Assembly: GCA_036626215.1 (NCBI GenBank)
Contig: JAZKSG010000001.1
Span: 5,634-69,633, forward strand
Direction: 5' to 3'
From: Thermoplasmatota archaeon
GTDB lineage: Archaea > Thermoplasmatota > E2 > DHVEG-1
DNA length: 64,000 nt
In this document: piece after piece, positions 1-61,444 of the stretch
Position numbering within the stretch: position 1 is the first letter of the stretch
How the letters are laid out: each line of letters starts with the position of its first letter
The notes under the pieces: generated by a model
Told to the model about the DNA's origin: nothing
The model's input: the letters and a program-made list of their open reading frames with translations, nothing else
Databases searched by the model: none
Translations under genes and position numbers: made by a program

Positions 1-587
1 ATCAGTAGCGTCATTGATAATGGGATTGGATTTTACTACATAAAAAATCTTTTTATTCGGATGGAGTTTTTTTATTTCCTCAAGAAGTAGTTTATCGAAA
101 AATATTTCACCAGCGTTATCTCCAAGAAATAGAATCTGATCAGATTTTTTTAAAACTTTTTTGAAATAAGGATACGCGTCATGACTAAATTTTTTTTCAA
201 CTGCGTTATCTATCATCTCCTCTAGTTTGAAGCGGTTGCTTGTCCCAAAATCAATAATATTTCCAACGATAGAAAGTTTTATAGCCATAAACAATGGATC
301 ATCAGAGTTTTCAACCAGTTTTTTTAGATGAGTATATTCTTTTTCAGCCATCTTGTTCGACTGTTGTTTAACTTTTTTATAAGGATCTTTATGGCAGGTT
401 ATCTCTCTAATGATAGCATGGGCTTCACGTGAAATCTCTGGAGGAGGGCTATTAAAATCTATGTTTTGGAAATATTTCATAATTTTTTTTATAACCCTCT
501 CTTGAGTTTTTTCGTCAGCATTAGTCATACGTGCTGCTTCTAATGATTGTTTTAGAAAGCAGGGTATGCAGTCTAAATATGTTTTCA
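1..587 (-). CDS. DUF89/ARMT1-like damage-control phosphatase family protein (C-terminally truncated by window edge)
   Basis: Minus-strand ORF starting at ATG 587-585 runs off the window start. N-terminus MKTYLDCIPCFLKQSLEAARM has the CxxC-containing start typical of DUF89 proteins. Confidence 0.5.
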
Positions 588-628
588 TAATTTTTCCACA
601 AAAAAAATAGAAGGTATTGAAATTTTTT

Positions 629-1018
629 TTAAACTCTGTGTCCTCTTTTACCTTGGCCTCTAAAAGCATGTCTCTGACAAGCGTCACTTTCATCTGCTTT
701 CTGAAGCTCTCCGTTCTTGAAAGCTTTCACAGCGTCACGCACCGTCCCATGAGCTCCAATATAGACGTGTATGCCCATTTGGTTGAAAAGGCTTATAGCT
801 TTTCGGCCAAGACCCCGGCATATCATCACATCCACGTTTTCATTTTTCATAATCTCTGGTGGATCGCCTCTACCGCCCATATGATGACTGGTGTTAGGAA
901 CAACTTTTACATCATCAGTTTCAAGATCAACAATTGTGTAATTTGGAACCCGGCCGAAGTGTTCACCAATTTTTTCATCTAAACCTTTTTCACCGTTAGA
1001 AGGGACGCCTATCTTCAT
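629..1018 (-). CDS. NifX/NifB-C-terminal-like dinitrogenase FeMo-cofactor-binding domain protein
   Basis: 129 aa. MKIGVPS...GEHFGR...YTIVDLE pattern of the PF02579 family. Its stop overlaps the start of the next paralog. Confidence 0.7.
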   Translation of the reverse strand: MKIGVPSNGEKGLDEKIGEHFGRVPNYTIVDLETDDVKVVPNTSHHMGGRGDPPEIMKNENVDVMICRGLGRKAISLFNQMGIHVYIGAHGTVRDAVKAFKNGELQKADESDACQRHAFRGQGKRGHRV

Positions 1019-1413
1019 CTTTTTCCTCCATGGCCACTGCCTCGTCTTCCACCTGCACCAAAATGGCTTCCGACGTTGGGTTTTTCTGTTTCATCAAGTT
1101 CACCATTTTTAAACTGTTTAACAACGTTTTTAACAGAACCGTTGGCGCCAGTGAACACTTTTACATCTCCAGCGGACAGAGTTCTGTAGGCGTTTGGGCC
1201 GATATTGCCAGTTATAACGGCCTCGGTTTTTTTATTTACTACATCCTGAGCTGTTTGAACACCGGCTCCACCCATCGCTGAAGCATTTTCATTAGATATC
1301 GCTTCCATATCCATGGTTTCAGTATCAACAAAGATTAGATATTTACATCGTCCAAAACGAGGGTCAACATCTGCTTCGAGATTATTATTTTTTGAAGTTA
1401 CAGCTACTTTCAT
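1015..1413 (-). CDS. NifX/NifB-C-terminal-like dinitrogenase FeMo-cofactor-binding domain protein (paralog)
   Basis: 132 aa. MKVAVTS...PRFGRCKYLIFVDTE with the same fold signature. Tandem paralog with a 4-nt overlap to the downstream gene. Confidence 0.7.
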   Translation of the reverse strand: MKVAVTSKNNNLEADVDPRFGRCKYLIFVDTETMDMEAISNENASAMGGAGVQTAQDVVNKKTEAVITGNIGPNAYRTLSAGDVKVFTGANGSVKNVVKQFKNGELDETEKPNVGSHFGAGGRRGSGHGGKR

Positions 1414-1470
1414 TTTTACTTTACTTCACCTCTAATAAATGTTTTTTTAACTTATATGTAATATTAGTTT

Positions 1471-1668
1471 TCAGGCTCTTACCATCGGGGTTTCACATTT
1501 TGGGCATATTTTAGTATTACAAGGAACGCCTCTCTGATGTGGTTCTTTATGGCCACAGTTAGGGCAGCGGCATTCTCCACCTGGGCCTGCAAATCCAGCG
1601 CCTCGGCCTCTTCCTCGGCCACCAGTAGACTCCTGACCAGTTGGGCCTGTACCATTTCCACCTGGCAT
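1471..1668 (-). CDS. DUF5320-like small protein with C-terminal 4-Cys zinc ribbon
   Basis: 65 aa. N-terminus MPGGNGTGP followed by a GRGRGRG stretch. C-terminus CRCPNCG...CPKCETP (CxCxxC...CxxC). Confidence 0.55.
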   Translation of the reverse strand: MPGGNGTGPTGQESTGGRGRGRGAGFAGPGGECRCPNCGHKEPHQRGVPCNTKICPKCETPMVRA

Positions 1669-1671
1669 ATT

Positions 1672-2526
1672 TTATCTTTCACCTCCTACTTCCTCTTTTT
1701 TATTTAAAATCTTTTCTATATTTTCAACTATTTTGTTAAAAGAATTAACAGTTTCTCTATTCCTGTTTTTTAACATAAAGGTTTTTCCAGTATCTCCCGC
1801 TTCTACAATATGAGGATCCAAAGGTATGCTTCCAAGTAAAGGTATTTGAAAATCTTCTGCTGCTTTTTTTCCACCACCTGTTTTGAAGATATTTATATCT
1901 TCTCCACAATGTGGGCAAGTAAAACCACTCATATTTTCAACAATTCCTAGAATATCAAGATTTAATTTTTTTACAAAATTTATAGATTTTCTAACGCTTA
2001 CCAATGCTACATCTTGAGGAGTAGTTACTACTACGGCTCCATCGATATTTTCAAGGATTTGAGCAATGCTAAGTGGTTCATCACCTGTTCCAGGTGGTAG
2101 ATCTATAATCATGTAGTCAAGTTTCCCCCAGTTTACATCACCAAGAAGCTGTCGTATGACTCCCATCTTCATAGGTCCACGCCAAATAACAGGATCGTCG
2201 TGATTCTGTACTAAAAAACCCATAGACATTACTTTTAAACCATCTTTCGTTTGAATAGGATTTATAGACTTTTGTGTGCCTGTCGGTTTTTTGTCTTCTA
2301 CACCTAGCATTTTCGGTATACTAGGTCCATGCATATCGCTATCTAATAAACCGACTTTGTAGTTTTTTTGTGATAGGGCTACGGCGAGATTAGATGCGAC
2401 AGTGCTTTTTCCAACGCCGCCTTTGCCACTTAGGACAACTATTTTATGTTTTACATTTGGTAGATTGATTTTCATCTTCTTTTTTTGGTTGTCATCTTTT
2501 TTCATCTTTATATTGCTCCGGTTCAC
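1672..2526 (-). CDS. Mrp/NBP35/ApbC-family P-loop ATPase (Fe-S cluster carrier)
   Basis: 284 aa. Deviant Walker A VLSGKGGVGKST, and a CPHCG motif typical of Mrp/NBP35 cluster ligands. Confidence 0.85.
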   Translation of the reverse strand: MNRSNIKMKKDDNQKKKMKINLPNVKHKIVVLSGKGGVGKSTVASNLAVALSQKNYKVGLLDSDMHGPSIPKMLGVEDKKPTGTQKSINPIQTKDGLKVMSMGFLVQNHDDPVIWRGPMKMGVIRQLLGDVNWGKLDYMIIDLPPGTGDEPLSIAQILENIDGAVVVTTPQDVALVSVRKSINFVKKLNLDILGIVENMSGFTCPHCGEDINIFKTGGGKKAAEDFQIPLLGSIPLDPHIVEAGDTGKTFMLKNRNRETVNSFNKIVENIEKILNKKEEVGGER

Positions 2527-2620
2527 GTTTTTTGGTTTTTAATTCTCTTATTTTTCTTCGGTGTTCGTTATAGAAATATAAAAGAGATTTAAAGAACTCC
2601 CCTTATTATTTTTAGGGGCT

Positions 2621-2989
2621 TTATTTTTCTTCTGTGAGATCCACAAGTCTTTCTTTCAGGGCTTTGATTTCTTCTTCTAGATCTTCTATCATTGCTTCAA
2701 GGTATTCTTTTTCCTCTTCTTTGGTTGGTCTGCGATACGGTTCTCGGTAAGCTGGATCAGGATATGGTTCTCTATAGTAGGGATTACGTTCTGGGTATGG
2801 TTGTCTGTAGAATCTTCCTCTACCGAATCCTCTTCCGGATCTATGTCCTCGGCCGAAACCACGACCGTAGCCACGGCCTCGTGGTATTCCTTTGGTAAAA
2901 CCTGGGCTGTTGTATCCCGTGCAGTATCCTAAACCACGTCCGGTCATGGGGCCTCTTCCTTCTGGTCCTGTTCTGTCTCCACCTGGCAT
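2621..2989 (-). CDS. DUF5320-like Arg/Gly/Tyr-rich disordered protein with C-terminal coiled coil
   Basis: 122 aa. N-terminus MPGGDRTGP matches the start of the 65-aa paralog. Contains RGRGYGRGFGRGHRSGRGFGRGR and a (Y)REPY repeat. C-terminus is EEEKEYLEAMIEDLEEEIKALKERL. Confidence 0.55.
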   Translation of the reverse strand: MPGGDRTGPEGRGPMTGRGLGYCTGYNSPGFTKGIPRGRGYGRGFGRGHRSGRGFGRGRFYRQPYPERNPYYREPYPDPAYREPYRRPTKEEEKEYLEAMIEDLEEEIKALKERLVDLTEEK

Positions 2990-2992
2990 ATT

Positions 2993-3349
2993 TTATTTCT
3001 CACCTCCATATTCTTTTTTTCTTTGGATGTAGTCTCCGCCTTCAATGCGGATCGGATAGGCTTTGACTAATGCGCGTGTGATTTTTTTTCTCGCTCTGTG
3101 TAAATCATTCCATAGAGTTTTTCTGGAGACACCCATCATTGCTGCTGCCTCTTGTTGTGTAAGCTCCTCTAGGTCTACAAGGCGTAATGCTTCGAGTTCG
3201 TCTAATGTTATTAATATGGTTTTTTTAGGGATTTCTGGCTTTTCAGTTGGGGTGAACTCGACGGGTTTGATTGTTTTGTCTATCCATCTTTTTCCTCTTC
3301 TGCGCCCACGTCTTCCTCGGCATCTATGTCTCCGACCTGGCATCAGCAA
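2993..3349 (-). CDS. DUF134/UPF0251-family predicted DNA-binding protein (sigma-70 region-4-like HTH)
   Basis: 118 aa. Arg-rich N-terminus MPGRRHRCRGRRGRRRG. HTH segment is LTQQEAAAMMGVSRKTLWNDLHRARKKI. First gene of the minus-strand operon. Confidence 0.6.
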   Translation of the reverse strand: MLMPGRRHRCRGRRGRRRGKRWIDKTIKPVEFTPTEKPEIPKKTILITLDELEALRLVDLEELTQQEAAAMMGVSRKTLWNDLHRARKKITRALVKAYPIRIEGGDYIQRKKEYGGEK

Positions 3350-3374
3350 CTACATCCTATAGTATTTACTCTAA

Positions 3375-3396
3375 TGTGAATTATTATATAAATATT
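3375..3396 (-). promoter_or_regulatory. Candidate archaeal TATA/BRE promoter for the DUF134-DUF5320-mrp-nifX operon
   Basis: ttattatataaatatt lies ~30-45 nt upstream of the start codon at 3349 in a 150-bp divergent intergenic region. Confidence 0.3.
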
Positions 3397-3501
3397 TTGG
3401 TTTTGTTTTAAATATTATAAAACGATTACAGATACTAATATCCCTTCAGAGGAAATTGATTAAATTTATTATTAAAGGCAACATTCACAGAAAAAAGAAT
3501 T

Positions 3502-4266
3502 ATGAAACTCATCTCCTGGAACGTAAATGGAATTAGAGCAGCAAATCGTAAAGGATTTTTTGACTGGTTTCAGAAAGAATCACCAGATGTTTTATGTTTA
3601 CAGGAAATCAAAGCCTTGCCTAAACAAATCCCTCCACATCTTAAGAACACACCCGGATACCACACTTTTTTTAACTCAGCAGAAAGAAAAGGATACAGCG
3701 GTGTGGCCACATATACAAAGAAGCAACCAAAAAACGTAGAAAAAGGGATTTGGAATAAAAAAATTCGATCAAGAAGGAAGAACGCTAATAACAGAATATG
3801 AAGACTTCGTTTTATTCAACATATATTTTCCAAACGGTAAAAAAAATCAAAAAAGATTAGATTACAAACTAGATTTCTACGATACATTCTTAGCATATGC
3901 CGATAACCTAAAAGCTGAAGGAAAAAATATAGTAGTATGCGACGATTTCAACACAGCTCACAAACCAATAGATCTTGCACATCCTAAAGCCAATGAAAAA
4001 ACCTCAGGTTTTTTACCAGTTGAACGAGCATGGATTGATAGATTTATAGACCACGGATACGTTGACACATTCAGACAATTCAACAAACAACCTGAACAAT
4101 ATACCTGGTGGAGTATGCGAACAAGAGCAAGAGAAAGAAACGTTGGATGGAGACTGGATTATTTTTTTGTAAACGAAGGATTTATGCCAAACGTAAAAAA
4201 CGTGTTTATAATGCAAGATGTAAAAGGATCAGATCATTGCCCAGTAGGAATAGAAATAGAAATCTA
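3502..4266 (+). CDS. xth: Exodeoxyribonuclease III (Mth212/ExoA-like AP endonuclease), interrupted by a +1 frameshift in an A7 tract at 3757-3763
   Basis: N-terminus [23 protein letters not shown]...LCLQEIKA...[12 protein letters not shown]. After the A-run the reading frame continues in +1 as [25 protein letters not shown]...[13 protein letters not shown]...[23 protein letters not shown]...[13 protein letters not shown] and ends at 4266. Removing one A gives a continuous ~254-aa ExoIII. Confidence 0.8.
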
Positions 4267-4285
4267 AAAGATAAGGTGGAAATGA

Positions 4286-9283: not shown

Positions 9284-9736
9284 ATGGATATACAAATAAT
9301 CATGGGGTCAAAATCAGATACGCCGGTCGCTGAAAAAGCAGAAAAGATTTTAGATCAGTTCAATGTCGAATATAATATTAAGATTGCTTCTGCTCATCGT
9401 ACACCAGAATATTTACAGAAACTAGTTGAAGAATCAGATGCAGATGTGTTTATCGGTATCGCCGGTTTATCAGCAGCTTTACCAGGTTCCATTGCAGCTC
9501 ATACCGCTAAACCAGTTATAGGGGTACCAGTTAGTGGAAAAGTAAACTTCGACTCAATACTATCTATAATACAAATGCCGCCTGGGATACCCGTAGCAGC
9601 AGTAGGATTAGACAGAGGTGACAACGCAGCGTTACTTGCAATACAGATATTATCAATCAAAAATGATGAATTGAAAGAGGAGATCAAACAGTATCGTGAG
9701 AAAAGAAAAAATAAGACTATAAAAGATAATCAATAA
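9284..9736 (+). CDS. purE: N5-carboxyaminoimidazole ribonucleotide mutase / AIR carboxylase PurE
   Basis: 150 aa. [15 protein letters not shown]...ASAHRTPE...[13 protein letters not shown] is canonical PurE. Confidence 0.85.
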
Positions 9737-17346: not shown

Positions 17347-20300
17347 TTATTCCGTATCCCTCGCCAGCATTATATCAATGCTGGTCGACTCAGCTATATG
17401 AACATTATTCTCTTTGTATGTATATGTAACATTTACATCGTTTTCAACTATAGTCTGGTCGACTGAAATATTATACCAACCCGGAGAGAGTTCTACTGAA
17501 TAGTAGCCGTCTTCATCCGAAGAAACAGTTCTACCTATAGCAGCGTTATTCTCAACCGAATAGTCTACTTTGAAATCTACTTCAACATCCCCAACAGCTT
17601 TGTTATTATTCTTGTTTTTAGTATAACCATCAACGGTAACTGAATGTTTCTCCATATCAAGAGTATACATAGTGCTGAGAGATTGGTTAACTATTAGATT
17701 ATCTGTGAAACTATACACTGGTGTATTCTCTTCTTTGTAATCAACTGTTACATTGTATATACCTGGTTTCAAAGCAGTTTTGTAATAACCGTTTTCATCT
17801 GTCGTTGCAGTGGTTTTCTCTGCAGTGTTGCTCCCAACGGATCCATCTGGCATAAATTTGATATTTATGTTTTTAGTTTCTATTGTTTTGTTGTCATATT
17901 CTATATAACCTGTTAGATTATTAGACATGGATAGATTAGTAGATTTGGTTTCATTTTCTGCGGGATAAACTGCGGTTTTCTCTGCTTTGAATCTGCCATC
18001 TTCAGCTATTGCATTTATCGAGTAATTATTGAGATTGTTACCACCTATTTTACCGGGATATATCGAAGTAAAATTATACATCCCGTTTTCATCCGTTGTG
18101 GTATTGGCGACAACATCGCTTTTAGGCATATATCCAGTTTGTCCCCCCATATTATAGGTCAACTTGTAATTGTGATTCAAAGTTACGTCAGCATCTGATA
18201 TTTCTTCACCCTCGTCATACAATCCATTTTGGTTATCATCATAATATACTCTTCCTTCTATGGTTGATTTTTTAGGTATCGAAAAGTTATAATTTTTTAA
18301 ACCAGAGTGTAGAGATAGGGACGTAGCATTGATGTAGTAACCATTGTGTTTTGCAAGGAACTCATATTTACCAGGGAAAAGATCTGTAAAGTTATATGTG
18401 CCATTTACATCAGAGTTGGTGTTTTTGGTTTCGCCATATTGAGCGTTTTGTTGTTGACGTGTGGGAAAGGCAGTAATCTCCCTCAATGAGATGGTGACAT
18501 TCTTCAACGGTTTATTTTTGGTTGAGTTGTATACAAATCCTTTCAACTCTGCAGGAGGAATAGAAAGGTTGCCTAAATTGATTATTCCTTTATCCTGTCG
18601 TCTCATGGCTTTGTCATCAGAAACGGAGAGGGTTATATTTTTCAGAATAAAAACATCGAAAAATTCAAAGGATAAATTTTTCTTAAGGCCTTGATGATAA
18701 AGATTTGAACCAACATAAGCTTCATCCAGATAAGATGAAAACTGTGAAAGTTGTTCAGGATATCTAATTACACGAATTGTAATATCTCCACCACCTGTGA
18801 GAACGCTAAAGTTTCCATCAGATATTTCTTCGCTACCATGATTTATATATAAAGTTTTACCATCTGGCCGAGTCAGATTATTCTGTACCATTATCAACAG
18901 GGATCGATCAGCTGATCCATTACCATAAACTAGTGAGCCATTAACTGTTGCGCCTTCATAATATTTGGCTATAACTACTGGTTTAAGATGCTTTTCAAAA
19001 CGAGCCCCTGTATGGAGGTATTCTGCATAAAAATGTTTCATACCCGAACACGGCAGTTGACCTAAAGGATATTTTTGATCCCGCATAGGAGAAGGCCCTA
19101 AAAATGTTCTATAAAACATGGTGTCATAGTAAAGAGACCGATGTTGCTGTCTTTGATCAACAGGCCGGATATATGTTTTTTCTTCTTCAGAAAGATTGTA
19201 ATAATATTCTGCATCTCTCCAACCTAAATCCTCAGACTCCTTCTCAGGATTGTTAGGAAAAATTCTCTGTAGTTTAAGCTGTGTTTTAACGAAGTCATCC
19301 TGTGGTGCACCCGCCATCACCAGGCTTTTATCTGATAGAAAAGCAAAAATGTTGAAAATCTGCTGATCACGTTGTTCAACACCATAATATCGTATACTGT
19401 AACCAGTAGACTCTTGCAAATCATGGTACAAACTGTTTATCTCTTCATCAGAAAGCCCATGTGTTTTATTAGTCAACATAGAGACTACATCATGATACAA
19501 AGCCATCTCTGGCCATTGCGCACCGACTTTTAAAAACCTTTTATCAACATCTTCTCTAAGATATTCATGATATTTTTTGTCTATAATTTCACCATACGAT
19601 GGTGCAGAAGTTGGAGTTTTAACCCATTTCGTAATTTTATTAGCTTTATTCCCACCTAAATATTCTTCTAAAACTTTTTTGGTGCTCTGTGAAAGAACAC
19701 CTTCATTGTCGTTAGCATCCCCTTCCAGCAATCTTACAATCCATACAGATACTGCTTCTTTTTCACTAGTAGCCGTATGAAAGTTAGATGCAGGAGGTAT
19801 ACCATCCTGGAAGTTATCAGCAACAGTAGGATGATTTCCTGTAGCTACCTCATAAAATCCATAATCCCACCAAGATATAAAGGCAGGTCGATCAACAGAA
19901 TTATTAATATCTTGATCCTGCTCACTAAGCCATTGAAAAGTCGCAGTCCAATAGGCTTCTTGATCATAGCCTAAACCAAATGGATGAGATACCTTTTCAC
20001 CCCAATAATCCTTTTTTTCTTCAAAAGGTACAGCTGAAGTGAAAGCAGGTATGGCATTTAATATCACAACCATGGCAACAAACAGAACGCCGACCAGGTG
20101 GAGAGGTTTAACACCTCTACGGAAACCATGAAGGCCTCCTCCAGCGCTCTTTATGTTACGTATCATCTTAGGGTAATTAAGCCAGCTGACTATTTTATAA
20201 ATCATAAAACCAGCGAAAATAGCTATCACAGGAGCCATATCTGTAATAAAACGACCAGCGATAGAGATAAGCCAAACATTTACAACAAAAAGGACACATA

Positions 20301-21612
20301 AAAACAAATAAGGCTTTTTACTGGTGTCTTTGTAGTATTTATAAAGCAGAAAGAAAAAACCAGCCAACCCAATCCAAAAGAGAGCAGCACCAAAATTCAT
20401 AACAGTTTGACTTATTCCAAAGGACTGAGCTTCACCAATAGTCAGAGAAACTTTTTTACCATAAATCCCGCCGGTTCCACGTATAATATCCGTAAACTTG
20501 GTCAACCTCGAAAAAGGAGCAAAAAACTGAGATAACTCTCTAGCATAATACAGAATTGAAAAACCTATCCCACCGAGTCCAATAACCACCGGTAAAGATA
20601 GAGTCCAAGGAATATTTTTACGATTCAAAAAGTAAGAGATTACGCCAAATAAAGCTACACCCAAACACAGAAAGAGAGGAATATTTATCGGCACGCCATT
20701 ATGTTTTGTAAACAAAACAGGCATTGAAACCAAATAACCTGTAACCATCATAATCAAAGGTGAAGAAAAAGTACGTAGATTTTTTTCTCCTCTTAATAAA
20801 TCTACAAAAATCTGAACGACGGCGTACAAACCGATGACGGTATAAATATACTCATGTTCAACCCATACCATACTTAAACCAGCTATAGAAAGACCGCCAA
20901 GTAAGCCATACAAAAGCGAACGAAGGTCATCTTTTTCTTTGATGCTTTTTATTAGAAACATAAAGGTGGTAAAAAACAATAGAATATTCAATGAATCATG
21001 GTCAAACAAAGAATAAATCGAGCCGTGGCTACCGCCTATAATAGCCACCATCAAAGGGATCCACAACGCAGATAATAAACCTATTTTCTTGTTGAAAATC
21101 TCTTTACCAATAAAATAAATTGGGAATACTAATAGTGCCCCAAATAAACAGGGTATAAACTGCATAGAATACCCTATCGCATCTATCTCACCCATAAAAG
21201 GCGTAAGGAAATTACTGAACCCCAAAGCCATCATGTTGAGCAAGGGAGCACGGCCACCGGACCGGGCAAGAGGGTAGTTCAAAAGTGGATCATTTTCATT
21301 ATAAAATGGATATGTCCCTGTTTCATGTGTTTTTTCAACAAGCCTCATATTGTAATATGGGTCAGTACCAGACAGATAATATTTAGATAATCCTTCACCA
21401 TCTTCATTCACATAAACACCACTCTGCATATTAAAATAAGAATTGTGAAGTAAAACAAGTAAAAATACGCCGATTAACGCTACAGTCACCCACCAGTTTT
21501 TACCTATATTGAACAGACTCTTTCTTTTACTAGTCTCCGCAGAGGTTTTTCTTGTAACATGTTTAGGTTTATCAGATGCAGATTTGCTTTTTCTTTGTGC
21601 ACGTTTTCGCAT
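17347..21612 (-). CDS. aglB: Oligosaccharyltransferase AglB (STT3 family) with long C-terminal extension carrying four Cna-B/CarboxypepD_reg-like repeats
   Basis: 1421 aa. N-terminal 13-TM region followed by the catalytic SWWDYGF motif. C-terminal ~450 aa contain four repeats of DENG-x-Y-x-F...PG-x-Y (GTYNFTDLFPGKYEF, DENGMYNFTSIYPGKI, DENGYYKTALKPGIYNVTV, DEDGYYSVELSPGWYNISV). Confidence 0.85.
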   Translation of the reverse strand: MRKRAQRKSKSASDKPKHVTRKTSAETSKRKSLFNIGKNWWVTVALIGVFLLVLLHNSYFNMQSGVYVNEDGEGLSKYYLSGTDPYYNMRLVEKTHETGTYPFYNENDPLLNYPLARSGGRAPLLNMMALGFSNFLTPFMGEIDAIGYSMQFIPCLFGALLVFPIYFIGKEIFNKKIGLLSALWIPLMVAIIGGSHGSIYSLFDHDSLNILLFFTTFMFLIKSIKEKDDLRSLLYGLLGGLSIAGLSMVWVEHEYIYTVIGLYAVVQIFVDLLRGEKNLRTFSSPLIMMVTGYLVSMPVLFTKHNGVPINIPLFLCLGVALFGVISYFLNRKNIPWTLSLPVVIGLGGIGFSILYYARELSQFFAPFSRLTKFTDIIRGTGGIYGKKVSLTIGEAQSFGISQTVMNFGAALFWIGLAGFFFLLYKYYKDTSKKPYLFLCVLFVVNVWLISIAGRFITDMAPVIAIFAGFMIYKIVSWLNYPKMIRNIKSAGGGLHGFRRGVKPLHLVGVLFVAMVVILNAIPAFTSAVPFEEKKDYWGEKVSHPFGLGYDQEAYWTATFQWLSEQDQDINNSVDRPAFISWWDYGFYEVATGNHPTVADNFQDGIPPASNFHTATSEKEAVSVWIVRLLEGDANDNEGVLSQSTKKVLEEYLGGNKANKITKWVKTPTSAPSYGEIIDKKYHEYLREDVDKRFLKVGAQWPEMALYHDVVSMLTNKTHGLSDEEINSLYHDLQESTGYSIRYYGVEQRDQQIFNIFAFLSDKSLVMAGAPQDDFVKTQLKLQRIFPNNPEKESEDLGWRDAEYYYNLSEEEKTYIRPVDQRQQHRSLYYDTMFYRTFLGPSPMRDQKYPLGQLPCSGMKHFYAEYLHTGARFEKHLKPVVIAKYYEGATVNGSLVYGNGSADRSLLIMVQNNLTRPDGKTLYINHGSEEISDGNFSVLTGGGDITIRVIRYPEQLSQFSSYLDEAYVGSNLYHQGLKKNLSFEFFDVFILKNITLSVSDDKAMRRQDKGIINLGNLSIPPAELKGFVYNSTKNKPLKNVTISLREITAFPTRQQQNAQYGETKNTNSDVNGTYNFTDLFPGKYEFLAKHNGYYINATSLSLHSGLKNYNFSIPKKSTIEGRVYYDDNQNGLYDEGEEISDADVTLNHNYKLTYNMGGQTGYMPKSDVVANTTTDENGMYNFTSIYPGKIGGNNLNNYSINAIAEDGRFKAEKTAVYPAENETKSTNLSMSNNLTGYIEYDNKTIETKNINIKFMPDGSVGSNTAEKTTATTDENGYYKTALKPGIYNVTVDYKEENTPVYSFTDNLIVNQSLSTMYTLDMEKHSVTVDGYTKNKNNNKAVGDVEVDFKVDYSVENNAAIGRTVSSDEDGYYSVELSPGWYNISVDQTIVENDVNVTYTYKENNVHIAESTSIDIMLARDTE

Positions 21613-22735: not shown

Positions 22736-24970
22736 ATGAGAGATTTTAGAAGAGTTTTGATTTTTATACTTTTCATATTAGTTTTATCGTCATTAAACTT
22801 TGCAAGTTTGTCGTCAGCCTCTGACAATCCAGGCGATCAAATAAATGCCGTTTTTACTATCAATTTTAAAGAACCTACTCTTTTAGATATAGAAGTAACA
22901 ATAAACGTTGATAAAATAACTGTAATGGGAGGTACCCAAACATATCTGGGCAGTGAGATAAAGAATGTAGGGCCAGAAACTATAGGTATGATTAAAGAAA
23001 ATATAAGAACTAAACTTAAAAAACAGATAGGATTGGTTTTTTATGAAACAACTGAGGATGCATATGACGATATAACAGCTGAGTCTGAAGTTACACATGA
23101 GGGAAACAACGTTTTTTCAGATAACTTCGAAGTCAAACTTAACTCAGAATTTTTTGGGATACGGAAAAATGTTGAGTCTAATAATCTCATAAAATCTGTC
23201 TTAGATATGGGGGGGAAAGTCGACTATACGCTTGATCTTCAGGCAGAACCAGGATGGACAAACACATATAATATCATTTTGAATAGCTACCACCCCCTGA
23301 AACACCATGGCGAATACACCGATGCATCCGAATTTCATCCTATAATAACTAATCAGGATGGAGAGAAAACAAAAGTAGTTAAGCAGAATTTATCTTTAAA
23401 ACTTGAAGATGCTACAACGCCAACATTATCATCAGAAGACATATTTGTTAAATATTATCTGGACTCAAAAGATATGACAGATACCTCCCTCAACATTTCA
23501 TTGTTATTTAGAAATGTAGATATAAAAAATTATGATTTTTTACCTAAAAGTATAAAACTCGATTTTATACCTGCCGACGGAGTGCGTTTCTTTAACGAAC
23601 TTGGTTTACTCAACTGGAGTGATTTTAAAACAAAAACTGTTGGACCTATTATGGAAGAAATAAAGGAAGCTATTGAAAGCAGTGAGTTTGACCAAATCTT
23701 AAGTTTGTCATTCAAATGGAATAACGCTACAACTACAGAATGTAAAAATCCTTATGATATCAACAACATGGATAACAAATCAGCTATAAAAGCAGAATAT
23801 ACTGATGAAAAAGTTGATCTGAGAATGTTAGGGATAACAGATAAAGCATTCTATGGACTCATAAACTCTGGTGGAATACCAACAAATTTCACAAAAGAAG
23901 ACATCAATTTCGGTGAGAATCTATGGGAAACAGGTTACAACTATGAAATAATAATGATGATGCCTGGGAATATAACGCTCCAAGACAAAAACCCATATGT
24001 TTTGAAGAGAAACGAAACCTTTTCAGGTAGCTTCGATTCAAAAGATGCAAAACATTACAATAAAGAAAACAAAGAGATCTTTATAACTATAGATATAAAA
24101 GAACCGAGTTTAAATCTATTAAGTTTTGTAACAGGTAAAACCCAACTGGAGTTCAACGTAAATGTTGAAGAGATAAACCAGTACTATGTTTTAGATAGAA
24201 ACACATCTGGATTTACTCTTCCATCAGATATAAAACTTGATTATCTATGCGCAGACGCATTTAGATTATGTGTACAAGAGAATGTTTTCAACGAAAGCGA
24301 TATAGATGATTTTCTGAAAAATGAAAAAACTATTTTCAAAAACAGAGTGAAAAACATATGGATAGGATCAGAAATCGGTAAGAACACTAAGGTTGAAGAG
24401 AAATCTTTCAAAAAATCGATATTTAACAAGGAAATCAACATCCAAGAAATGGAGAACGCTCCATCCGTTAAAGTAAATACCAATGCGGATTTTACCAAAC
24501 CTTTACCATTTGATCTTGATTTTATTCCACCAAACTTCGATATAAAGAAACAAAACTATGAGCTAAAAGGATTAGAAGGACACAATGTTACATACAAAAT
24601 CATCTTCCCAAAAGGATTATCTCTCGACACTTCTAACGAATTAGATAAAAATCTAAACATAGATACAACAAAGGATGGAAGAAAATATGTCACTATGAGT
24701 TTTAACAAAACAGAAAGTAACCTCTCTGACACAGTTTCCTGTAAATTAAAACCTTCAGGTTTATTTGTATTAGGTGTATTCACGCCTTGTATAGTCAGCT
24801 TTGTAGTAGCAGTTATCTTAATACTTGTTATTATGTTCTTAAGACGTAAAAGACGAGGCGGAAGGACAAAGGCTTCAAAGAGAAAACCTAGGCAGGAGGA
24901 ACCAAAAGAAGAAGGAGTATATGAAGACGAAGATTTTTATATGCCGCCTCCACCAGGTTCAAAAAAATAA
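22736..24970 (+). CDS. Large secreted/surface-anchored protein of unknown function (signal peptide, C-terminal TM and charged Pro-rich tail)
   Basis: 744 aa. Signal peptide MRDFRRVLIFILFILVLSSLNFASLSSA. No recognisable catalytic motif. C-terminus PSGLFVLGVFTPCIVSFVVAVILILVIMFLRRKRRGG...FYMPPPPGSKK. Confidence 0.6.
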   Translation: MRDFRRVLIFILFILVLSSLNFASLSSASDNPGDQINAVFTINFKEPTLLDIEVTINVDKITVMGGTQTYLGSEIKNVGPETIGMIKENIRTKLKKQIGLVFYETTEDAYDDITAESEVTHEGNNVFSDNFEVKLNSEFFGIRKNVESNNLIKSVLDMGGKVDYTLDLQAEPGWTNTYNIILNSYHPLKHHGEYTDASEFHPIITNQDGEKTKVVKQNLSLKLEDATTPTLSSEDIFVKYYLDSKDMTDTSLNISLLFRNVDIKNYDFLPKSIKLDFIPADGVRFFNELGLLNWSDFKTKTVGPIMEEIKEAIESSEFDQILSLSFKWNNATTTECKNPYDINNMDNKSAIKAEYTDEKVDLRMLGITDKAFYGLINSGGIPTNFTKEDINFGENLWETGYNYEIIMMMPGNITLQDKNPYVLKRNETFSGSFDSKDAKHYNKENKEIFITIDIKEPSLNLLSFVTGKTQLEFNVNVEEINQYYVLDRNTSGFTLPSDIKLDYLCADAFRLCVQENVFNESDIDDFLKNEKTIFKNRVKNIWIGSEIGKNTKVEEKSFKKSIFNKEINIQEMENAPSVKVNTNADFTKPLPFDLDFIPPNFDIKKQNYELKGLEGHNVTYKIIFPKGLSLDTSNELDKNLNIDTTKDGRKYVTMSFNKTESNLSDTVSCKLKPSGLFVLGVFTPCIVSFVVAVILILVIMFLRRKRRGGRTKASKRKPRQEEPKEEGVYEDEDFYMPPPPGSKK

Positions 24971-32395: not shown

Positions 32396-32902
32396 ATGGT
32401 TCCAAAAAAAATGTTTTTAACAAAGGGGCTAGGGAGAGATAAAAACAAACTGCAATCTTTCGAAATGGCTTTAAGAGACGCAGGTATAGAAAAATGCAAC
32501 TTGGTAAGAGTTTCTAGTATCGTCCCACCCTCCTGTAAAATCATAAAAAAAGAAGACGGGATAAAAGAGATTACACCAGGTATGATAACATTCTGTGTTT
32601 TATGTAAAAATCAGACCAAAAAAAAAGATGAAACAATAGGTGCAGGAATAGGAGTTGCAACATCTAATAAAAAAAATTTACATGGATATGTTGCTGAACA
32701 AACAGCCTACAATGAAGAATGTAGAAAGTTAGAAAAAAATGTAGAAAAAACAGCTAAAAAAATGCTTGCCACGACAGGCGCCATAAAGAAAGAGGGTTTT
32801 ATGAAAAACAATAAACAAACAATTAACGCTACACAGATAGCTACATGCAAAAAAGAAGGTGTTTGGACGACGGGTGTAGCCGCCGCTGTTTTTATAATAT
32901 AG
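32396..32902 (+). CDS. pdaD: Pyruvoyl-dependent arginine decarboxylase (PdaD family)
   Basis: 168 aa. FLTKGLG...SFEMALRDAGIEKCNLVRVSSIVPP contains the Ser-Ser self-cleavage site context of the PdaD family. Confidence 0.7.
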   Translation: MVPKKMFLTKGLGRDKNKLQSFEMALRDAGIEKCNLVRVSSIVPPSCKIIKKEDGIKEITPGMITFCVLCKNQTKKKDETIGAGIGVATSNKKNLHGYVAEQTAYNEECRKLEKNVEKTAKKMLATTGAIKKEGFMKNNKQTINATQIATCKKEGVWTTGVAAAVFII

Positions 32903-32979
32903 TAATGTTCTATACTTATGAAGAAAGGTTTTATATATGGTTTTTTCTTACCATGCTTCAACTAAGGAGTGAAGTTCAT

Positions 32980-35373
32980 ATGAAAAAAGTGTTCAATATT
33001 TGGTTCGAAGACCTAGGAATGAATGATGTCGCCTCTGTAGGTGGAAAAAATGCTTCTCTAGGTGAAATGATTAGTGCACTCAAAGAAAAAGGAGTAAATG
33101 TTCCCTCTGGCTTTGCAGTAACAGCATATGCATACAAATACACCCTAGAAGAAGCAGGAGTAGATGAAAAAATCAAAGAAATACTCTCCGATCTTGACAC
33201 ACACGATGTCAACAACCTAAAAGAAAGAGGGCAGAAAGTAAGGGAATTAATAAAAAACACCCCGCTACCAGAGGATCTACGTGAGGATATAAAAAAACAT
33301 TATAAAGGGATGGAAGAACGATACGGTGAAAACGTTGATGTAGCAGTAAGAAGTAGTGCTACAGCAGAAGACCTTCCAGATGCCAGTTTCGCAGGACAAC
33401 AAGAAACATATCTAAACGTAACCGGAGAAGAAGAACTATTAAAAAAAGTCCGTGAATGCTTCGCATCACTCTTTACCAACAGAGCAATATCATACAGAGA
33501 AGACAAAGGGTTCGACCATTTCGATGTATATCTCTCAGTAGGCATACAGAAAATGATTAGATCAGACTTGGCAAGCAGCGGAGTTATGTTTTCAATAGAC
33601 ACAGAAAGTGGATTTGAAGACGCCGTATTTATAACCGGAGCATGGGGGCTCGGAGAAAACGTTGTACAAGGAACAGTCAATCCAGATCAGTTCTACGTTT
33701 TCAAACCTACACTTAAAGAGGGATATCGACCAGTAGTGGAAAAGAAACTAGGTAGCAAAGAAAAAAAGATGATCTACTCAGAGGAAGGCACAAAAAATAT
33801 AGATGTTGATCAAGAAGAGAGAGATAAATTTGTAATCAACGATGATGAAATACTACAGCTTGCTAAATGGGCCTGTGCCATTGAAGACCACTATGAAAAG
33901 CCAATGGATATAGAATGGGCAAAAGACGGGGAAACTGGTGAGCTCTTCATAGTTCAAGCTAGACCCGAGACAGTTCACAGTCAAAAAGATGCTGCAACTT
34001 TAGAAACATATGTTCTTGAAGAAAAAAGCGACATTATAGCAGAAGGAGAAGCAGTAGGAAGCAAAATAGGAAAAGGAAAAGTAAACGTGATAGAAAGCGC
34101 CGAAAACATAGATCAATTCAAAAAAGGACAAGTTCTAGTTACCGATATGACCGACCCGGATTGGGAACCAATAATGAAAATCGCCGGAGCAATCGTCACC
34201 AACAGCGGAGGGAGAACCTGTCATGCAGCAATCATAAGCCGTGAACTCGGAATCCCCTGTGTTATAGGGACAGAAAACGGTACAGAAAAAATTAAAGATG
34301 GAGAAGAGGTAACCGTAGACTGCAGCGAAGGAGTAGGAAGAATCTACGAAGGAGGACTTAACTTCAGAGTGGATAAAACACACTTGGAAGAGATACCAGA
34401 TACCAAAACACAAATTCTAATGAATGTTGGAACGCCAGAAAAAGCATTTCAACAAGGACAGATTCCAAACGACGGAGTAGGGCTTGCAAGAGAGGAATTC
34501 ATCATAAACAGCCACATAGGCATACATCCATTAGCATTACTACAATATAAAGAACTGAAAAAGAAAGCAAAAAACGATGAAAAAATCGCAGAAGTAATCA
34601 AAAAGATAGATGAAAAAACCAAAGGATACGAAGACAAAGAAAAATTTTTCATAGACAAACTAACAAGAGGAATAGCAAAAATCGCTTCAGCATTCTACCC
34701 ACGAGACGTCATAGTCCGAATGAGTGACTTCAAAACCAACGAATACGCAAACCTAATAGGCGGATACCTGTACGAACCCGAAGAACACAACCCGATGATA
34801 GGGTGGAGAGGTGCCAGCAGATATTATGACGAAAAATTCAAACCAGCATACGGGCTCGAATGTCAAGCTATCAAAAAAGCAAGAGATGAAATGGGGCTCA
34901 CCAATATCAAGCCAATGATACCGTTCTGCCGTACGCCAGAAGAAGGGAAAAAAGTCATAGAAACAATGGAAGAATTCGGATTGAAACAAGGTGAAAACGA
35001 CCTGGAGATCTACGTAATGTGTGAAATACCAAGCAACGTAGTAGTAGCAGACCAGTTCGCAGAAATATTCGACGGATTCAGCATAGGGAGCAACGACCTC
35101 ACACAGCTAACACTAGGGCTAGACCGTGACTCAGATCTCGTAGCACACATATTTGATGAAAGACAAGACGCCGTAAAAAGACTAGTAAAACAAGTAATAG
35201 AAACCGCCCACAACCATGAACCAAGACGAAAAGTTGGAATATGTGGACAAGCACCGTCTGATTTCCCAGAATTCGCAGAATACCTAGTAGAGTGCGGAAT
35301 AGACAGTATCAGTTTAAATCCCGACACAGTCGTCAAAACCCGACTGACGATAGCAGACGCAGAAAAAAACTAA
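32980..35373 (+). CDS. ppsA: Phosphoenolpyruvate synthase (pyruvate, water dikinase)
   Basis: 797 aa from ATG 32980 after aaggagtg. The tracked ORF 32845 is an upstream extension. N-terminus MKKVFNIWFEDLGMNDVASVGGKNASLGEM. Phosphohistidine swivel motif GGRTCHAAIISRELGIPCVIG. C-terminal PEP-utilising TIM-barrel motifs IGSNDLTQLTLG. Confidence 0.9.
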   Translation: MKKVFNIWFEDLGMNDVASVGGKNASLGEMISALKEKGVNVPSGFAVTAYAYKYTLEEAGVDEKIKEILSDLDTHDVNNLKERGQKVRELIKNTPLPEDLREDIKKHYKGMEERYGENVDVAVRSSATAEDLPDASFAGQQETYLNVTGEEELLKKVRECFASLFTNRAISYREDKGFDHFDVYLSVGIQKMIRSDLASSGVMFSIDTESGFEDAVFITGAWGLGENVVQGTVNPDQFYVFKPTLKEGYRPVVEKKLGSKEKKMIYSEEGTKNIDVDQEERDKFVINDDEILQLAKWACAIEDHYEKPMDIEWAKDGETGELFIVQARPETVHSQKDAATLETYVLEEKSDIIAEGEAVGSKIGKGKVNVIESAENIDQFKKGQVLVTDMTDPDWEPIMKIAGAIVTNSGGRTCHAAIISRELGIPCVIGTENGTEKIKDGEEVTVDCSEGVGRIYEGGLNFRVDKTHLEEIPDTKTQILMNVGTPEKAFQQGQIPNDGVGLAREEFIINSHIGIHPLALLQYKELKKKAKNDEKIAEVIKKIDEKTKGYEDKEKFFIDKLTRGIAKIASAFYPRDVIVRMSDFKTNEYANLIGGYLYEPEEHNPMIGWRGASRYYDEKFKPAYGLECQAIKKARDEMGLTNIKPMIPFCRTPEEGKKVIETMEEFGLKQGENDLEIYVMCEIPSNVVVADQFAEIFDGFSIGSNDLTQLTLGLDRDSDLVAHIFDERQDAVKRLVKQVIETAHNHEPRRKVGICGQAPSDFPEFAEYLVECGIDSISLNPDTVVKTRLTIADAEKN

Positions 35374-61200: not shown

Positions 61201-61444
61201 TTTAATCGTACATTTCTCAGGAAACGAAGAACAAAAAGAGAAACTTTTAGCTTGGTTTGACAAATGGAATAAAAAACTAGAAAAAGAAAACCAAGAAAGA
61301 ACAGGTATGAAAACCAAAGATATGTTAGATGTACACATAATTACAGATGAAGACATAAAAAACAAAACTTCTTGGGCGACACATATAACATCAAGATACA
61401 AATCAGTTAGAGAGATACCAATAAAAAAGGATGAAAAGAATTAA
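58250..61444 (+). CDS. Multidomain protein: N-terminal sensor-like domain + PPDK_N ATP-grasp domain + conserved C-terminal module + Pol-beta-type nucleotidyltransferase domain
   Basis: 1064 aa. Paralog of 55236-58229 across the ATP-grasp (GAGKLGGKTSGVYLA, IIVRSSSLLEDSFGAAFSG, VLIQEVVG, VEFASDGEKLYFLQCRP) and the C-module (GPGRWGSRGDIKLGVPVKYGDI...SFGTHFFQD). C-terminus YLVGSTKDGSAGPGSDIDLIVHF matches the GS-x(9-13)-DxD nucleotidyltransferase signature. Confidence 0.55.
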   Translation: MNDRNKEFENIKNKLDKQVPEALQERVKELNCLYGLTNIVKDKSLSKDEALQKIVDLIPPSWQYPDITCARIKLKDEGVYKTDNFRETKWSQISNIFSDDKKIGTLEVYYLEEKPKLDEGPFLKEERWLIDAIADLIGKYIGEIQIKEELKQHKEKLDQVEKTGQKFEEAEITDKKHDWEVIIDLLIKTDPRMLLRITRKMVYHLYRFENEKINNLLSTVCPVDRDSSSTQWCGINMPNPRQNIESLKRVQQQVFELAKECFTPEELSRLFHYYIKQDKVRPLLLTSQKHGVPLVEITNELIRFFDKADEEIEISPEDRLSITTALIRRFFTDRLDYVNVAKQFINVEDFIPLLKHVVGPAQGAGKLGGKTSGVYLAEKIIKEEMETKDVLSDIAFPRSWYLTSDAIHNFIHYNDLDEVFHHKYLDPEEIRQEQVFLEQIFKNAVFPPEIVENLRKIIHDIDDKPIIVRSSSLLEDSFGAAFSGKYKSLFVPNTGSEEERLYALMDAIAEVYASTFGPDPIEYRRERGLLDFSEEMGVLIQEVVGIKVGKYYMPMFGGVAFSRNEFRWSPRIRREDGVIRLVPGLGTRAVDRVSNDYPILVSPSRPELQVNTLVEERIRYSPHYMDVINLESGAIETIDAIELFKQHPDEFPKLNQIISINKDGRLAKPSGLLLNPEEEDMVVTFSNLFDKTDFLEKIETLLDILEENIGTPVDVEFASDGEKLYFLQCRPQSQSLDIERVPIPKNIPDKRKLFSSDKYVTTAQIENIEYIVYVKPEGYANLQDREEMQKIATIVNRLNAKLPKRKFILMGPGRWGSRGDIKLGVPVKYGDINNTSLLVEVAREKGDYTPELSFGTHFFQDLVEADIKYLPLYPDHPNNLFNEKLLLDAENKLSEITPSFKDYEEVVKIVKVSDLVDGGTLSVIMDGEAGKALAFLKPPDHWSWRMQQVKKIADDLDPEVYSIDSLYLVGSTKDGSAGPGSDIDLIVHFSGNEEQKEKLLAWFDKWNKKLEKENQERTGMKTKDMLDVHIITDEDIKNKTSWATHITSRYKSVREIPIKKDEKN

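Follow-up and report, generated by a model that had tools for sequence, protein, structure and literature searches.

A probable archaeal ORP-type gene cluster in a Thermoplasmatota archaeon, in which MrpORP is split and three accessory families are conserved

What are two NifX-like proteins, an Mrp-type ATPase and several small arginine- and glycine-rich proteins doing side by side in an archaeal genome region with no visible nitrogenase genes? This question is raised by a minus-strand gene cluster at the left end of a 64,000-nucleotide stretch of DNA (the window) from a Thermoplasmatota archaeon (GTDB lineage E2, DHVEG-1; GenBank assembly GCA_036626215.1, contig JAZKSG010000001.1, positions 5,634 to 69,633), in which the gene order is DUF134, DUF5320, Mrp, a small Cys5-His ribbon protein, NifX_b, NifX_a and an ARMT1-like/DUF89 gene that is cut by the window edge. 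An earlier note on this DNA had described the locus as a six-gene operon of a kind that recurs in anaerobes and has no assigned function, and had proposed a metallocluster-trafficking or regulatory module. Both the observation and its interpretation stand in part: the proposed type of module is consistent with all results presented here, and the neighbourhood does have a literature, as it matches the type of cluster that encodes the ORP complex of Desulfovibrio (PMC6345978, PMC8359166). With moderate confidence, the locus is regarded here as the promoter-proximal part of an archaeal ORP-type cluster involved in the handling or storage of iron-sulfur (Fe-S) clusters or metal sulfides and subject to Fe-S-responsive control. 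Its identity as an ORP-type cluster is well supported and highly probable, while the biochemical roles proposed for its proteins are possible rather than probable. What the ORP complex does has been an open question since 2011, and little is understood of how anaerobes store and traffic Fe-S clusters.

The NifX-like proteins first raise the matter of nitrogenase. Both NifX_a (129 residues, 629..1018; E-value 1e-22) and NifX_b (132 residues, 1015..1413; E 5e-21) belong to PF02579, the fold family that they have in common with the nitrogenase carriers NifX, NafY and NifB-C, and the Pfam name of this family is the sole hint that carriers of the NifX/NafY type might here serve the maturation of a genuine nitrogenase iron-molybdenum cofactor (FeMo-co). 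A tblastn search of the 64 kb with NifH returned only a weak P-loop match on Mrp, and the large open reading frames (ORFs) of the window are ordinary archaeal genes with no nif gene among them, as the earlier note had read it. In contrast to the nitrogenase carriers, the window proteins have no NifX or NafY match in NCBIfam, where only MrpORP and a weak AnfO were recovered, and their best structural relatives (PH0822, TM1816, MTH1175 and the orange protein, ORP) are non-nif proteins. Since there is no NifH, the neighbours are ordinary archaeal genes and NifX/NafY matches are lacking, FeMo-co maturation is excluded for this window, its residual probability being negligible.

The relationship to the ORP system emerges from Mrp, a P-loop ATPase of about 277 residues (1672..2505; PF10609, E 7e-107) whose translation displays the two motifs that define the Mrp/NBP35 family, a deviant Walker A (GKGGVGKS) and a CxxC (CPHC). 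Its best match in the PDB is Cfd1 (6g2g, E 4e-71), and on NCBIfam it scores 395.7 bits with the MrpORP model (model positions 3-257) versus 256.5 bits with ApbC. The MrpORP equivalog (NF041136) has a cutoff of 450 bits, below which the window protein falls, and it is thus not a fused MrpORP. Positions 266-364 of the same model are matched, with 44.9 bits, by NifX_a. Because Mrp covers positions 3-257 and NifX_a positions 266-364, MrpORP is split rather than fused in the window and, as judged from the sequences, NifX_a is its detached Di-Nase domain and Mrp its P-loop half. The best PDB matches of NifX_a are PH0822 (2yx6) and TM1816. Its tail reads DAC-QR-H-AFRGQGKRGHRV, that is, a Cys-x-x-His motif followed by a basic end; this ending, compared across relatives as DAC-x-x-H-AFR with a basic or His-rich tail, parallels the C-terminal CDH motif of MrpORP. 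In the bacterial loci L058, L074 and L084, a fused MrpORP adjoins DUF5320; these proteins score 515-546 bits, above the 450-bit cutoff, and carry the published CxHFGHCE, PPPHEPG and CDH motifs (PMC6345978). As fused MrpORP proteins that pass the equivalog cutoff stand beside it, DUF5320 is therefore found in bona fide ORP clusters.

The ORP complex of Desulfovibrio is composed of Orp3, Orp4, Orp5, Orp8 and Orp9, the last being MrpORP (PMC6345978, PMC8359166), which holds a bridging [4Fe-4S] cluster together with a [3Fe-4S] cluster in its Di-Nase domain and matures Orp3 and Orp4 (PMC6345978). Orp5 bears the locus tags DVU2105 and Dde_3197, and for Orp7 (DVU2107) the literature searched offered no more than a regulon table. 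Expression of the orp genes requires OrpR, an Fe-S redox sensor that switches them on at low potential and off when H2S is sparged away, and the complex, whose function was called unclear, has been suggested to be of archaeal origin (PMC8359166). The window cluster resembles those of D. vulgaris Hildenborough and D. alaskensis G20 in that its Mrp is closest to the MrpORP model, that a Di-Nase/NifX domain with a C-terminal Cys/His motif is present, that NifX_b supplies an ORP/Orp8-like NifX-fold protein (PDB matches: MTH1175, 1eo1, E 9e-19; D. gigas orange protein, 2wfb, E 1e-14), that a pair of MinD-like ATPases with [4Fe-4S] ferredoxin inserts occurs in its syntenic relatives, that it is restricted to anaerobes, and that a dedicated regulator stands at its head. 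On the other hand, it differs in the division of MrpORP over two genes and in its regulator, a small DUF134 helix-turn-helix protein behind an archaeal TATA promoter, which takes the place of the sigma54 promoter and of the enhancer-binding OrpR with its Fe-S PAS domain. In addition, the conserved DUF5320, ribbon and ARMT1/DUF89 proteins are not described in the ORP papers (PMC6345978, PMC8359166). What is new is thus an archaeal ORP-type cluster with a split MrpORP, DUF134 in the place of OrpR and three conserved accessory families.

A second precedent, this time an archaeal one, is provided by Methanococcus voltae, in which the products of Mvol_0689-0696 were 2.3- to 95-fold more abundant on FeS2 than on Fe(II)/HS-, and include proteins termed 'IssA-like1/2' (PMC8516115). 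This block encodes a NifX-like protein, two CbiA proteins, another NifX-like protein, a pair of uncharacterised proteins and one of the radical SAM type, with no report on Mvol_0690 (PMC8516115). The likeness lies in the archaeal succession of NifX-like, two CbiA and NifX-like genes with small proteins, and the block is, going by its published description, apparently related to the window cluster.

Further evidence comes from gene order. In agreement with the earlier note, which held the neighbourhood to be conserved, the same order is found in at least six independent Thermoplasmatota contigs, in which DUF5320, the only protein compared, is about 46-62% identical; the best genome matches of its closest homologues are metagenome-assembled genomes (MAGs) of 'uncultured Thermoplasmatales'. 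On these contigs, an M32 peptidase and ExoIII lie on the divergent side, followed by DUF134, DUF5320, Mrp and the small Cys protein; after the two NifX genes come an ARMT1-like gene, two CbiA+Fer4 genes and then a cupin or NifU gene (L001, L003, L007, L008, L011, L014). From this conserved order it follows that the window takes in no more than the promoter-proximal end of a cluster comprising about ten genes. The six genes of the earlier note are accordingly no closed operon: a seventh, the ARMT1-like/DUF89 gene (1..588, start ATG 588-586), had been overlooked, and more follow by synteny. Of this gene, truncated at the left window edge, only the N-terminal 196 codons are present (PF01937, E 5e-48), including an N-terminal CxxC (CIPC), and it is 64% identical to the gene in the same position of L001; the DUF89 literature yielded no link to such a gene context. 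Elsewhere in the 64-kb window, no homologue of the CbiA+Fer4 (Orp3/Orp4-type) ATPases was found, and two such MinD-like [4Fe-4S] ATPases are predicted to lie beyond the window edge, after the ARMT1/DUF89 gene.

The association extends well beyond this lineage. When one genome per species was scanned, relatives of DUF5320 were detected in at least 461 genomes, spread over Thermoplasmatota, Asgard, DPANN, Methanosarcinales and many anaerobic bacterial phyla. The neighbourhoods of the 80 best DUF5320 loci were counted by means of iterated profile searches and six-frame ORF calls, an approach that may report too many or too few members of short low-complexity families, the ribbon protein being one example. 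NifX-like proteins occurred within 6 kb of DUF5320 in 61 of the 80 loci, CbiA+Fer4 ATPases (Orp3/4-like) in 49, Mrp in 39, the ribbon protein in 31, DUF134 in 27 and ARMT1-like proteins in 17; for the 42 loci that extend 4 kb or more to either side, the counts were 35 for NifX-like proteins, 34 for CbiA+Fer4 and 28 for Mrp. The commonest gene immediately downstream of DUF5320 was a NifX-like one (27/80). DUF5320, DUF134 and the unnamed Cys5-His ribbon family are thereby tied to ORP-type clusters across Archaea and anaerobic Bacteria, and no functional study of DUF5320, DUF134 or UPF0251 was found in the literature searched, nor any study linking DUF5320 or DUF134 to ORP, IssA or the M. voltae block.

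DUF5320 itself (122 residues, 2621..2989) scores 102.2 bits over the full PF17253 model, for which the threshold is 27 bits. Residues 1-31 form a nearly invariant N-terminal motif, MPGGDRTGPxGxGPxTGRGxGYCxG..PG[FY] in the alignment, with a single Cys; residues 32-62 are an RG/aromatic stretch with a net charge of +10, residues 63-92 a Pro/Tyr-rich linker and residues 93-122 an acidic leucine zipper of four heptads. In the AlphaFold2 model, residues 1-89 have mostly low predicted local distance difference test scores (pLDDT; means of ten-residue blocks 42-66), while residues 90-120 form a single helix with block means of 84-92, so that the modelled architecture is that of a disordered region followed by a zipper. 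A reading as a basic leucine zipper protein was rejected because the 30-residue Pro/Tyr linker parts the basic stretch from the zipper. The only sub-1e-3 matches of the DUF5320 profile in the PDB are to the mitochondrial ATPase inhibitor IF1 (E 2e-5 to 7e-4), the other matches being generic coiled coils; IF1 likewise combines a coiled coil for dimerisation with an N-terminal part that is disordered and rich in Gly/Arg, and P-loop ATPases adjoin DUF5320, and the match is probably compositional. The N-terminal motif also occurs in other settings: it is duplicated in tandem in protein P0072 (191 residues), it makes up a short gene of its own immediately upstream of a complete DUF5320 gene at L005:4746-4967 and in L022, L046, L067, L072 and L074, and 13 of the 80 loci have another DUF5320-type gene within 6 kb.

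The partners of DUF5320 are revealed not only by proximity but also by natural fusions. In a protein of L063, a NifX domain (PF02579, E 3e-24) precedes the RG and coiled-coil portion of DUF5320 (PF17253, 36 bits, model positions 22-98), and when this protein was used as query both domains were recovered in 119 of the 120 best-scoring clusters (190-230 residues; WOR-3, Aminicenantes and others). These fusions bear on a different explanation, namely that the cluster encodes a positioning or cell-division machine, as was initially put forward for the ORP complex of Desulfovibrio, in which Orp3/Orp4 and Mrp would act as motors with Fe-S clusters as mere cofactors. DUF5320 would then be a MinE/ParG-like partner, a dimeric coiled coil whose basic, conserved and disordered N-terminal peptide docks on a deviant-Walker-A ATPase and stimulates it. 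It has been shown that an orpR mutant has morphological defects and that MrpORP resides at the cell pole (PMC6345978, PMC8359166). The combination of a disordered conserved N-terminus with a leucine zipper, the proximity of DUF5320 to CbiA+Fer4 ATPases and to Mrp in the counts given above, and the sole PDB similarity, to IF1 (best E 2e-5, probably compositional), would also suit such a partner. However, DUF5320 is coupled most strongly to NifX-fold proteins, in its vicinity, as commonest immediate neighbour and in a large fusion family, rather than to the ATPases; an N-terminal activating peptide as the essential part is hard to reconcile with NifX-DUF5320 fusions that keep the RG and coiled-coil half and dispense with that peptide; and the M. 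voltae cluster responds to the source of iron and sulfur. A division machine is accordingly considered rather unlikely.

The 65-residue protein encoded between Mrp and NifX_b (1471..1668) had been taken by the earlier note for a second DUF5320. Its match to PF17253 reaches 16.9 bits against the threshold of 27 and concerns residues 1-39 (model positions 1-38) only; the positional homologue in L001 scores 21.6 bits. Shared with DUF5320 is thus the N-terminal module, MPGGNGTGP followed by an RG-rich segment (MPGGxGTGP/RG), whereas the C-terminus carries a conserved Cys5-His ribbon, CxCPxCG-x4-H-x3-GxPC-x4-CPxCG in the family alignment. By its sequence, the protein belongs to a distinct Cys5-His ribbon family that has this module alone in common with DUF5320; the family comprises 929 cluster representatives at E<=1e-3, and neither a Pfam model nor a solved relative in the PDB was found for it. 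Consequently, profile searches placed two of the small ORFs, the 122-residue one in DUF5320 and the other in DUF134, and left the 65-residue protein unplaced, and of the six family names first given to these genes five hold by Pfam (two NifX-like proteins, Mrp/NBP35, DUF5320 and DUF134). The 65-residue protein is a candidate metal or Fe-S sensing or binding partner. Its ribbon module is fused behind DUF134 in P0264 and P0293 and behind a third NifX subtype with a 'MPGC..RRR' tail in P0289, P0292 and P0273, and close homologues of the window DUF134 carry a C-terminal four-Cys Fe-S domain (PF04060). These modules are thus often fused to NifX-fold domains or to the regulator, and the many combinations speak for direct physical cooperation and for a regulator that works together with a Cys-rich sensor. 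Ribbon repeats, three to five in number, also occur in very long proteins (P0242, of 988 residues, P0245 and P0331), in P0242 together with PDZ domains and a NifX-like domain.

The third, divergent NifX-like subtype is usually encoded just upstream of DUF5320 in bacterial loci (L070:6374-6769, L050:5969-6382, L074:4919-5392 and L080:9502-10014, and also in L015, L033, L043, L060, L067 and L075), and its tail, 'MPGC..RRRRxRRG', resembles the N-terminus of DUF134 (MPG-RRHRCRGRRGRRRG).

At the head of the cluster, DUF134/UPF0251 (116 residues, 2993..3343) scores 90 bits with PF02001, above the gathering threshold, and 39.4 bits with Sigma70_r4_2. Its start is the ATG at 3343, as an NCBI protein of 116 residues from a Thermoplasmatota MAG is 100% identical, and with this start all three small proteins begin with M-P-G, as had been noticed before. 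That all three are strongly cationic is true of DUF134 (isoelectric point, pI, 10.4); DUF5320 and the 65-residue protein have a pI of about 9.2, and only segments of them are strongly cationic. The N-terminal arm of DUF134, MPGRRHRCRGRRGRRRGKRW, is Arg-rich and disordered, with a net charge of +10. It precedes a three-helix core that is modelled with pLDDT 88-95 (residues ~41-100) and whose top Foldseek matches are region 4 of extracytoplasmic function (ECF) sigma factors, with a root-mean-square deviation of 0.5-1.3 A over ~45-50 residues; no solved sequence relative was found in the PDB. As modelled, the core is a helix-turn-helix of the sigma-70 region-4 type, and DUF134 is the probable transcription regulator of the cluster.

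The promoter and leader of DUF134 lie at 3344..3400. An alignment of eight related loci reveals a common TATA box, TATTTATATA, upstream of DUF134. In six distinct loci among these eight, a perfect palindrome, CTCATATGAG, is found five bases downstream of the box; each locus has a single copy of it, invariably 24-33 nucleotides upstream of the DUF134 ATG. In the window, the TATA box reads ATTTATATAA (~3384-3393), and an operator-like element, TTCACATTAGAGTAA, is located at 3366-3380, followed by a Shine-Dalgarno-like AGGATG. A TATA-proximal position is typical of archaeal repressor operators. DUF134 might auto-regulate the cluster from an operator adjoining the TATA box, with the Cys5-His ribbon protein, or the fused Fe-S domain in relatives, as its Fe-S or redox sensor, an assembly that would be the archaeal counterpart of OrpR. 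Farther upstream, about 60 nucleotides from the DUF134 TATA box, three Thermoplasmatota loci share a conserved element of about 50 nucleotides, CAGCCGyATrCGACA...CCGACAATGCGACAG..CCCC (L007 ~9540-9600, L008 ~9530-9590, L014 ~2470-2530), which is absent from the window.

The Arg/Gly-rich stretches found in DUF134, DUF5320 and the 65-residue protein alike could also indicate that all three are nucleic-acid-binding regulators of the RGG or G-quadruplex (G4) type that control the adjacent Fe-S genes and make no direct contact with metal clusters. The helix-turn-helix of DUF134 is genuine, DUF134 adjoins DUF5320 and is probably co-transcribed with it, and the M. mazei DUF134 and DUF5320 proteins have been flagged as candidate G4 binders by a motif scan (PMC7565180). 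This explanation is nevertheless given little probability, considering that a large family joins the RG and zipper half of DUF5320 to NifX-fold domains, that fusions of the ribbon module involve NifX-like domains and not DUF134 alone, and that the NifX-fold proteins carry similar Gly/Arg tails themselves.

These tails lead to IssA (PF2025) of Pyrococcus furiosus, a NifX-fold protein which stores Fe and S in the form of thioferrate by means of a cationic Gly/Arg/aromatic tail and is induced by sulfide and iron; MTH1175 was placed in the IssA clade by the same authors, who also defined a mesophilic and uncharacterised 'IssX' clade with shorter Gly-rich tails (PMC5524996). In the window, NifX_b has the post-domain motif PNVGSHFGAGG (family form PxVGSH[FH]GMGG) and then a Gly/Arg tail, and 37 of 47 ORP-like (type b) NifX proteins with a tail of at least 12 residues have net positive, Gly/Arg-rich tails. 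The published definition of IssA requires pI >=9, fewer than 5 Cys and >=20% Gly in the last 40 residues, and the looser one of IssX pI >=8, fewer than 10 Cys and >=10% Gly (PMC5524996). With pI 8.73, 1 Cys and 22% Gly for NifX_b and pI 8.60, 2 Cys and 12% Gly for NifX_a, both window proteins agree with the composition of IssX and, owing to their pI, fall outside IssA. The likeness thus consists of a NifX-fold (IPR003731/PF02579) domain followed by a flexible, cationic, Gly-rich tail in both cases, and of the Pro-rich, Gly/Arg/aromatic composition of DUF5320, which is as described for the IssA tail. In contrast to IssA, the window NifX proteins do not have the long (~70-residue) tail, tail-like sequence being encoded separately as DUF5320, nor tryptophan-rich repeats, and IssA is a single gene that has not been described within an Mrp/MinD cluster. 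The comparison is one of domain and composition.

Taken together with the ORP-type identity of the cluster, these likenesses suggest how its proteins could work. A dimer of Mrp would hold a bridging [4Fe-4S] cluster at its CxxC and deliver clusters to the partner ATPases and Cys-rich proteins, as MrpORP does for Orp3 and Orp4. Non-covalent binding of an anionic inorganic metal-sulfide species would be the task of the NifX-fold proteins, for which there are precedents in the Mo-Cu-S cluster of the orange protein and the [3Fe-4S] cluster of the MrpORP Di-Nase domain (PMC6345978) and in the thioferrate of IssA (PMC5524996). Polycationic counter-charge and oligomerisation would be contributed by the Gly/Arg tails of the NifX proteins and, in trans, by the +10 RG stretch and zipper of DUF5320, which would act as a detachable IssA-like tail.

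A more far-reaching version of this proposal, which is speculative and on the unlikely side, is that DUF5320 and the NifX Gly/Arg tails are widespread disordered polycations that template, wrap or condense thioferrate-like iron sulfide on NifX scaffolds. The ORP-type cluster would then be a modular Fe-S mineral store or buffer, an 'IssA in pieces', whose load DUF134 would sense either with its own RG arm or with the help of a Cys-rich partner, be it the ribbon protein or a fused Fe-S domain. If this storage model were true, it would define a common and unrecognised Fe-S buffering system of anaerobes. The comparison in any case brings together three literatures, those on the Desulfovibrio ORP complex, on Pyrococcus IssA and on pyrite-grown methanogens.

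The same architecture could serve a different cargo. In that case, the NifX-fold proteins would sequester or detoxify thiomolybdate- or thiotungstate-copper species that form spontaneously in sulfidic habitats. The cluster of the orange protein, [S2MoS2CuS2MoS2]3-, is anionic and bound non-covalently (PMC6345978), and would thus be served just as well by cationic Gly/Arg tails; the orange protein of D. gigas is, as reported above, among the matches of NifX_b, and cation diffusion facilitator (CDF) metal-efflux transporters are fused to a NifX-like domain in related loci. Yet no genes for molybdenum, tungsten or copper transport or cofactors were seen next to the cluster, the MrpORP Di-Nase domain, Orp3/4 and IssA are all Fe-S binders, and the M. 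voltae block is induced by an Fe/S mineral. A heterometal cargo is therefore judged distinctly unlikely.

Several points weigh against an ORP-type cluster for Fe-S handling or storage. The Desulfovibrio ORP complex has been linked to cell morphology and division, not storage, and the Orp3/4-like ATPases are not in the window and are placed by synteny. The cargo of the window NifX proteins is not fixed, because NifX-fold proteins are known to carry different cargoes (Mo-Cu-S, [3Fe-4S], thioferrate and FeMo-co), and the roles proposed for these proteins are read from sequence rather than from biochemistry. Their tails are short (~23-24 residues versus ~70 in IssA), and their pI of 8.6-8.7 lies below the IssA value of 9. 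Electrostatics does not account for the near-invariance of the first 30 residues of DUF5320, Cys23 included, and RG/RGG stretches are classical nucleic-acid binders in a protein that adjoins the regulator and may be co-transcribed with it. Finally, the window copy of the palindrome is degenerate, with 3 mismatches, and is not significant on its own, at least three such matches being obtained in 73 of 100 shuffles.

As to the organisation of the locus, the ORF listing gives six co-directional ORFs on the minus strand, at 629-1018, 1015-1413, 1471-1668, 1672-2526, 2621-2989 and 2993-3349. The earlier note was right about their common direction and went too far in describing overlapping stops and starts: a single pair overlaps (1015-1018), two pairs are separated by 3 nucleotides, and the remaining gaps measure 42, 57 and ~94-115 nucleotides. 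The outer limits it quoted, 617 and 3362, are those of spurious plus-strand ORFs. The last of these gaps depends on the start of Mrp, which is probably the ATG at 2505, with a GGAG 10 nucleotides upstream, the ORF-finder start being a GTG at 2526. The intergenic region after DUF5320 (2506..2620) contains a hairpin, CCCCT-N9-AGGGG (2600-2618), T-rich tracts and a TATA-like element, CTTTTATATTT (2574-2584), and several relatives, L001, L007, L008 and L014 among them, have T-rich or TATA-like spacers in this position; the region may act as an attenuator and internal promoter. Between NifX_a and the ARMT1-like gene, the sequence shows a T8 tract (600..607) that might serve in termination or attenuation as an archaeal oligo-T signal. 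Given these signals after DUF5320 and after NifX_a, the cluster may comprise two or three transcription units. A scan for bacterial sigma70 promoters and terminators did not exceed the shuffles (15 found against 11.6 expected), the scan being ill suited to an archaeon, and Rfam matched no RNA family in the window.

Some additional observations concern related loci and the rest of the window. L032:14000-15502, and probably the long 'NifX' ORFs of L047, L065 and L076, suggest a link of the NifX fold to metal export or homeostasis, as does L013, where a CDF transporter is adjacent. Divergent from the cluster, exonuclease III (xth, 3502-4267, plus strand) is split over two reading frames: relative to the L001 orthologue, residues 1-83 are encoded in frame 1 (3502-3750) and residues 47-254 in frame 2 (3641-4264), which makes it either a frameshifted pseudogene or a MAG assembly error. 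A 744-residue ORF (22736-24970, plus strand) has no Pfam match at E<=1e-5. Two adjacent large paralogues on the plus strand, of 997 and 1064 residues (55236-58229 and 58250-61444), are distinct from the complete phosphoenolpyruvate synthase at 32845-35373; PPDK_N (ATP-grasp) is the sole domain of the first, and the second adds a nucleotidyltransferase domain. Lastly, an AglB/STT3 oligosaccharyltransferase of 1421 residues (17347-21612, minus strand), which has CarboxypepD_reg/SdrD_B-like domains at its C-terminus, supports the archaeal origin of the window.

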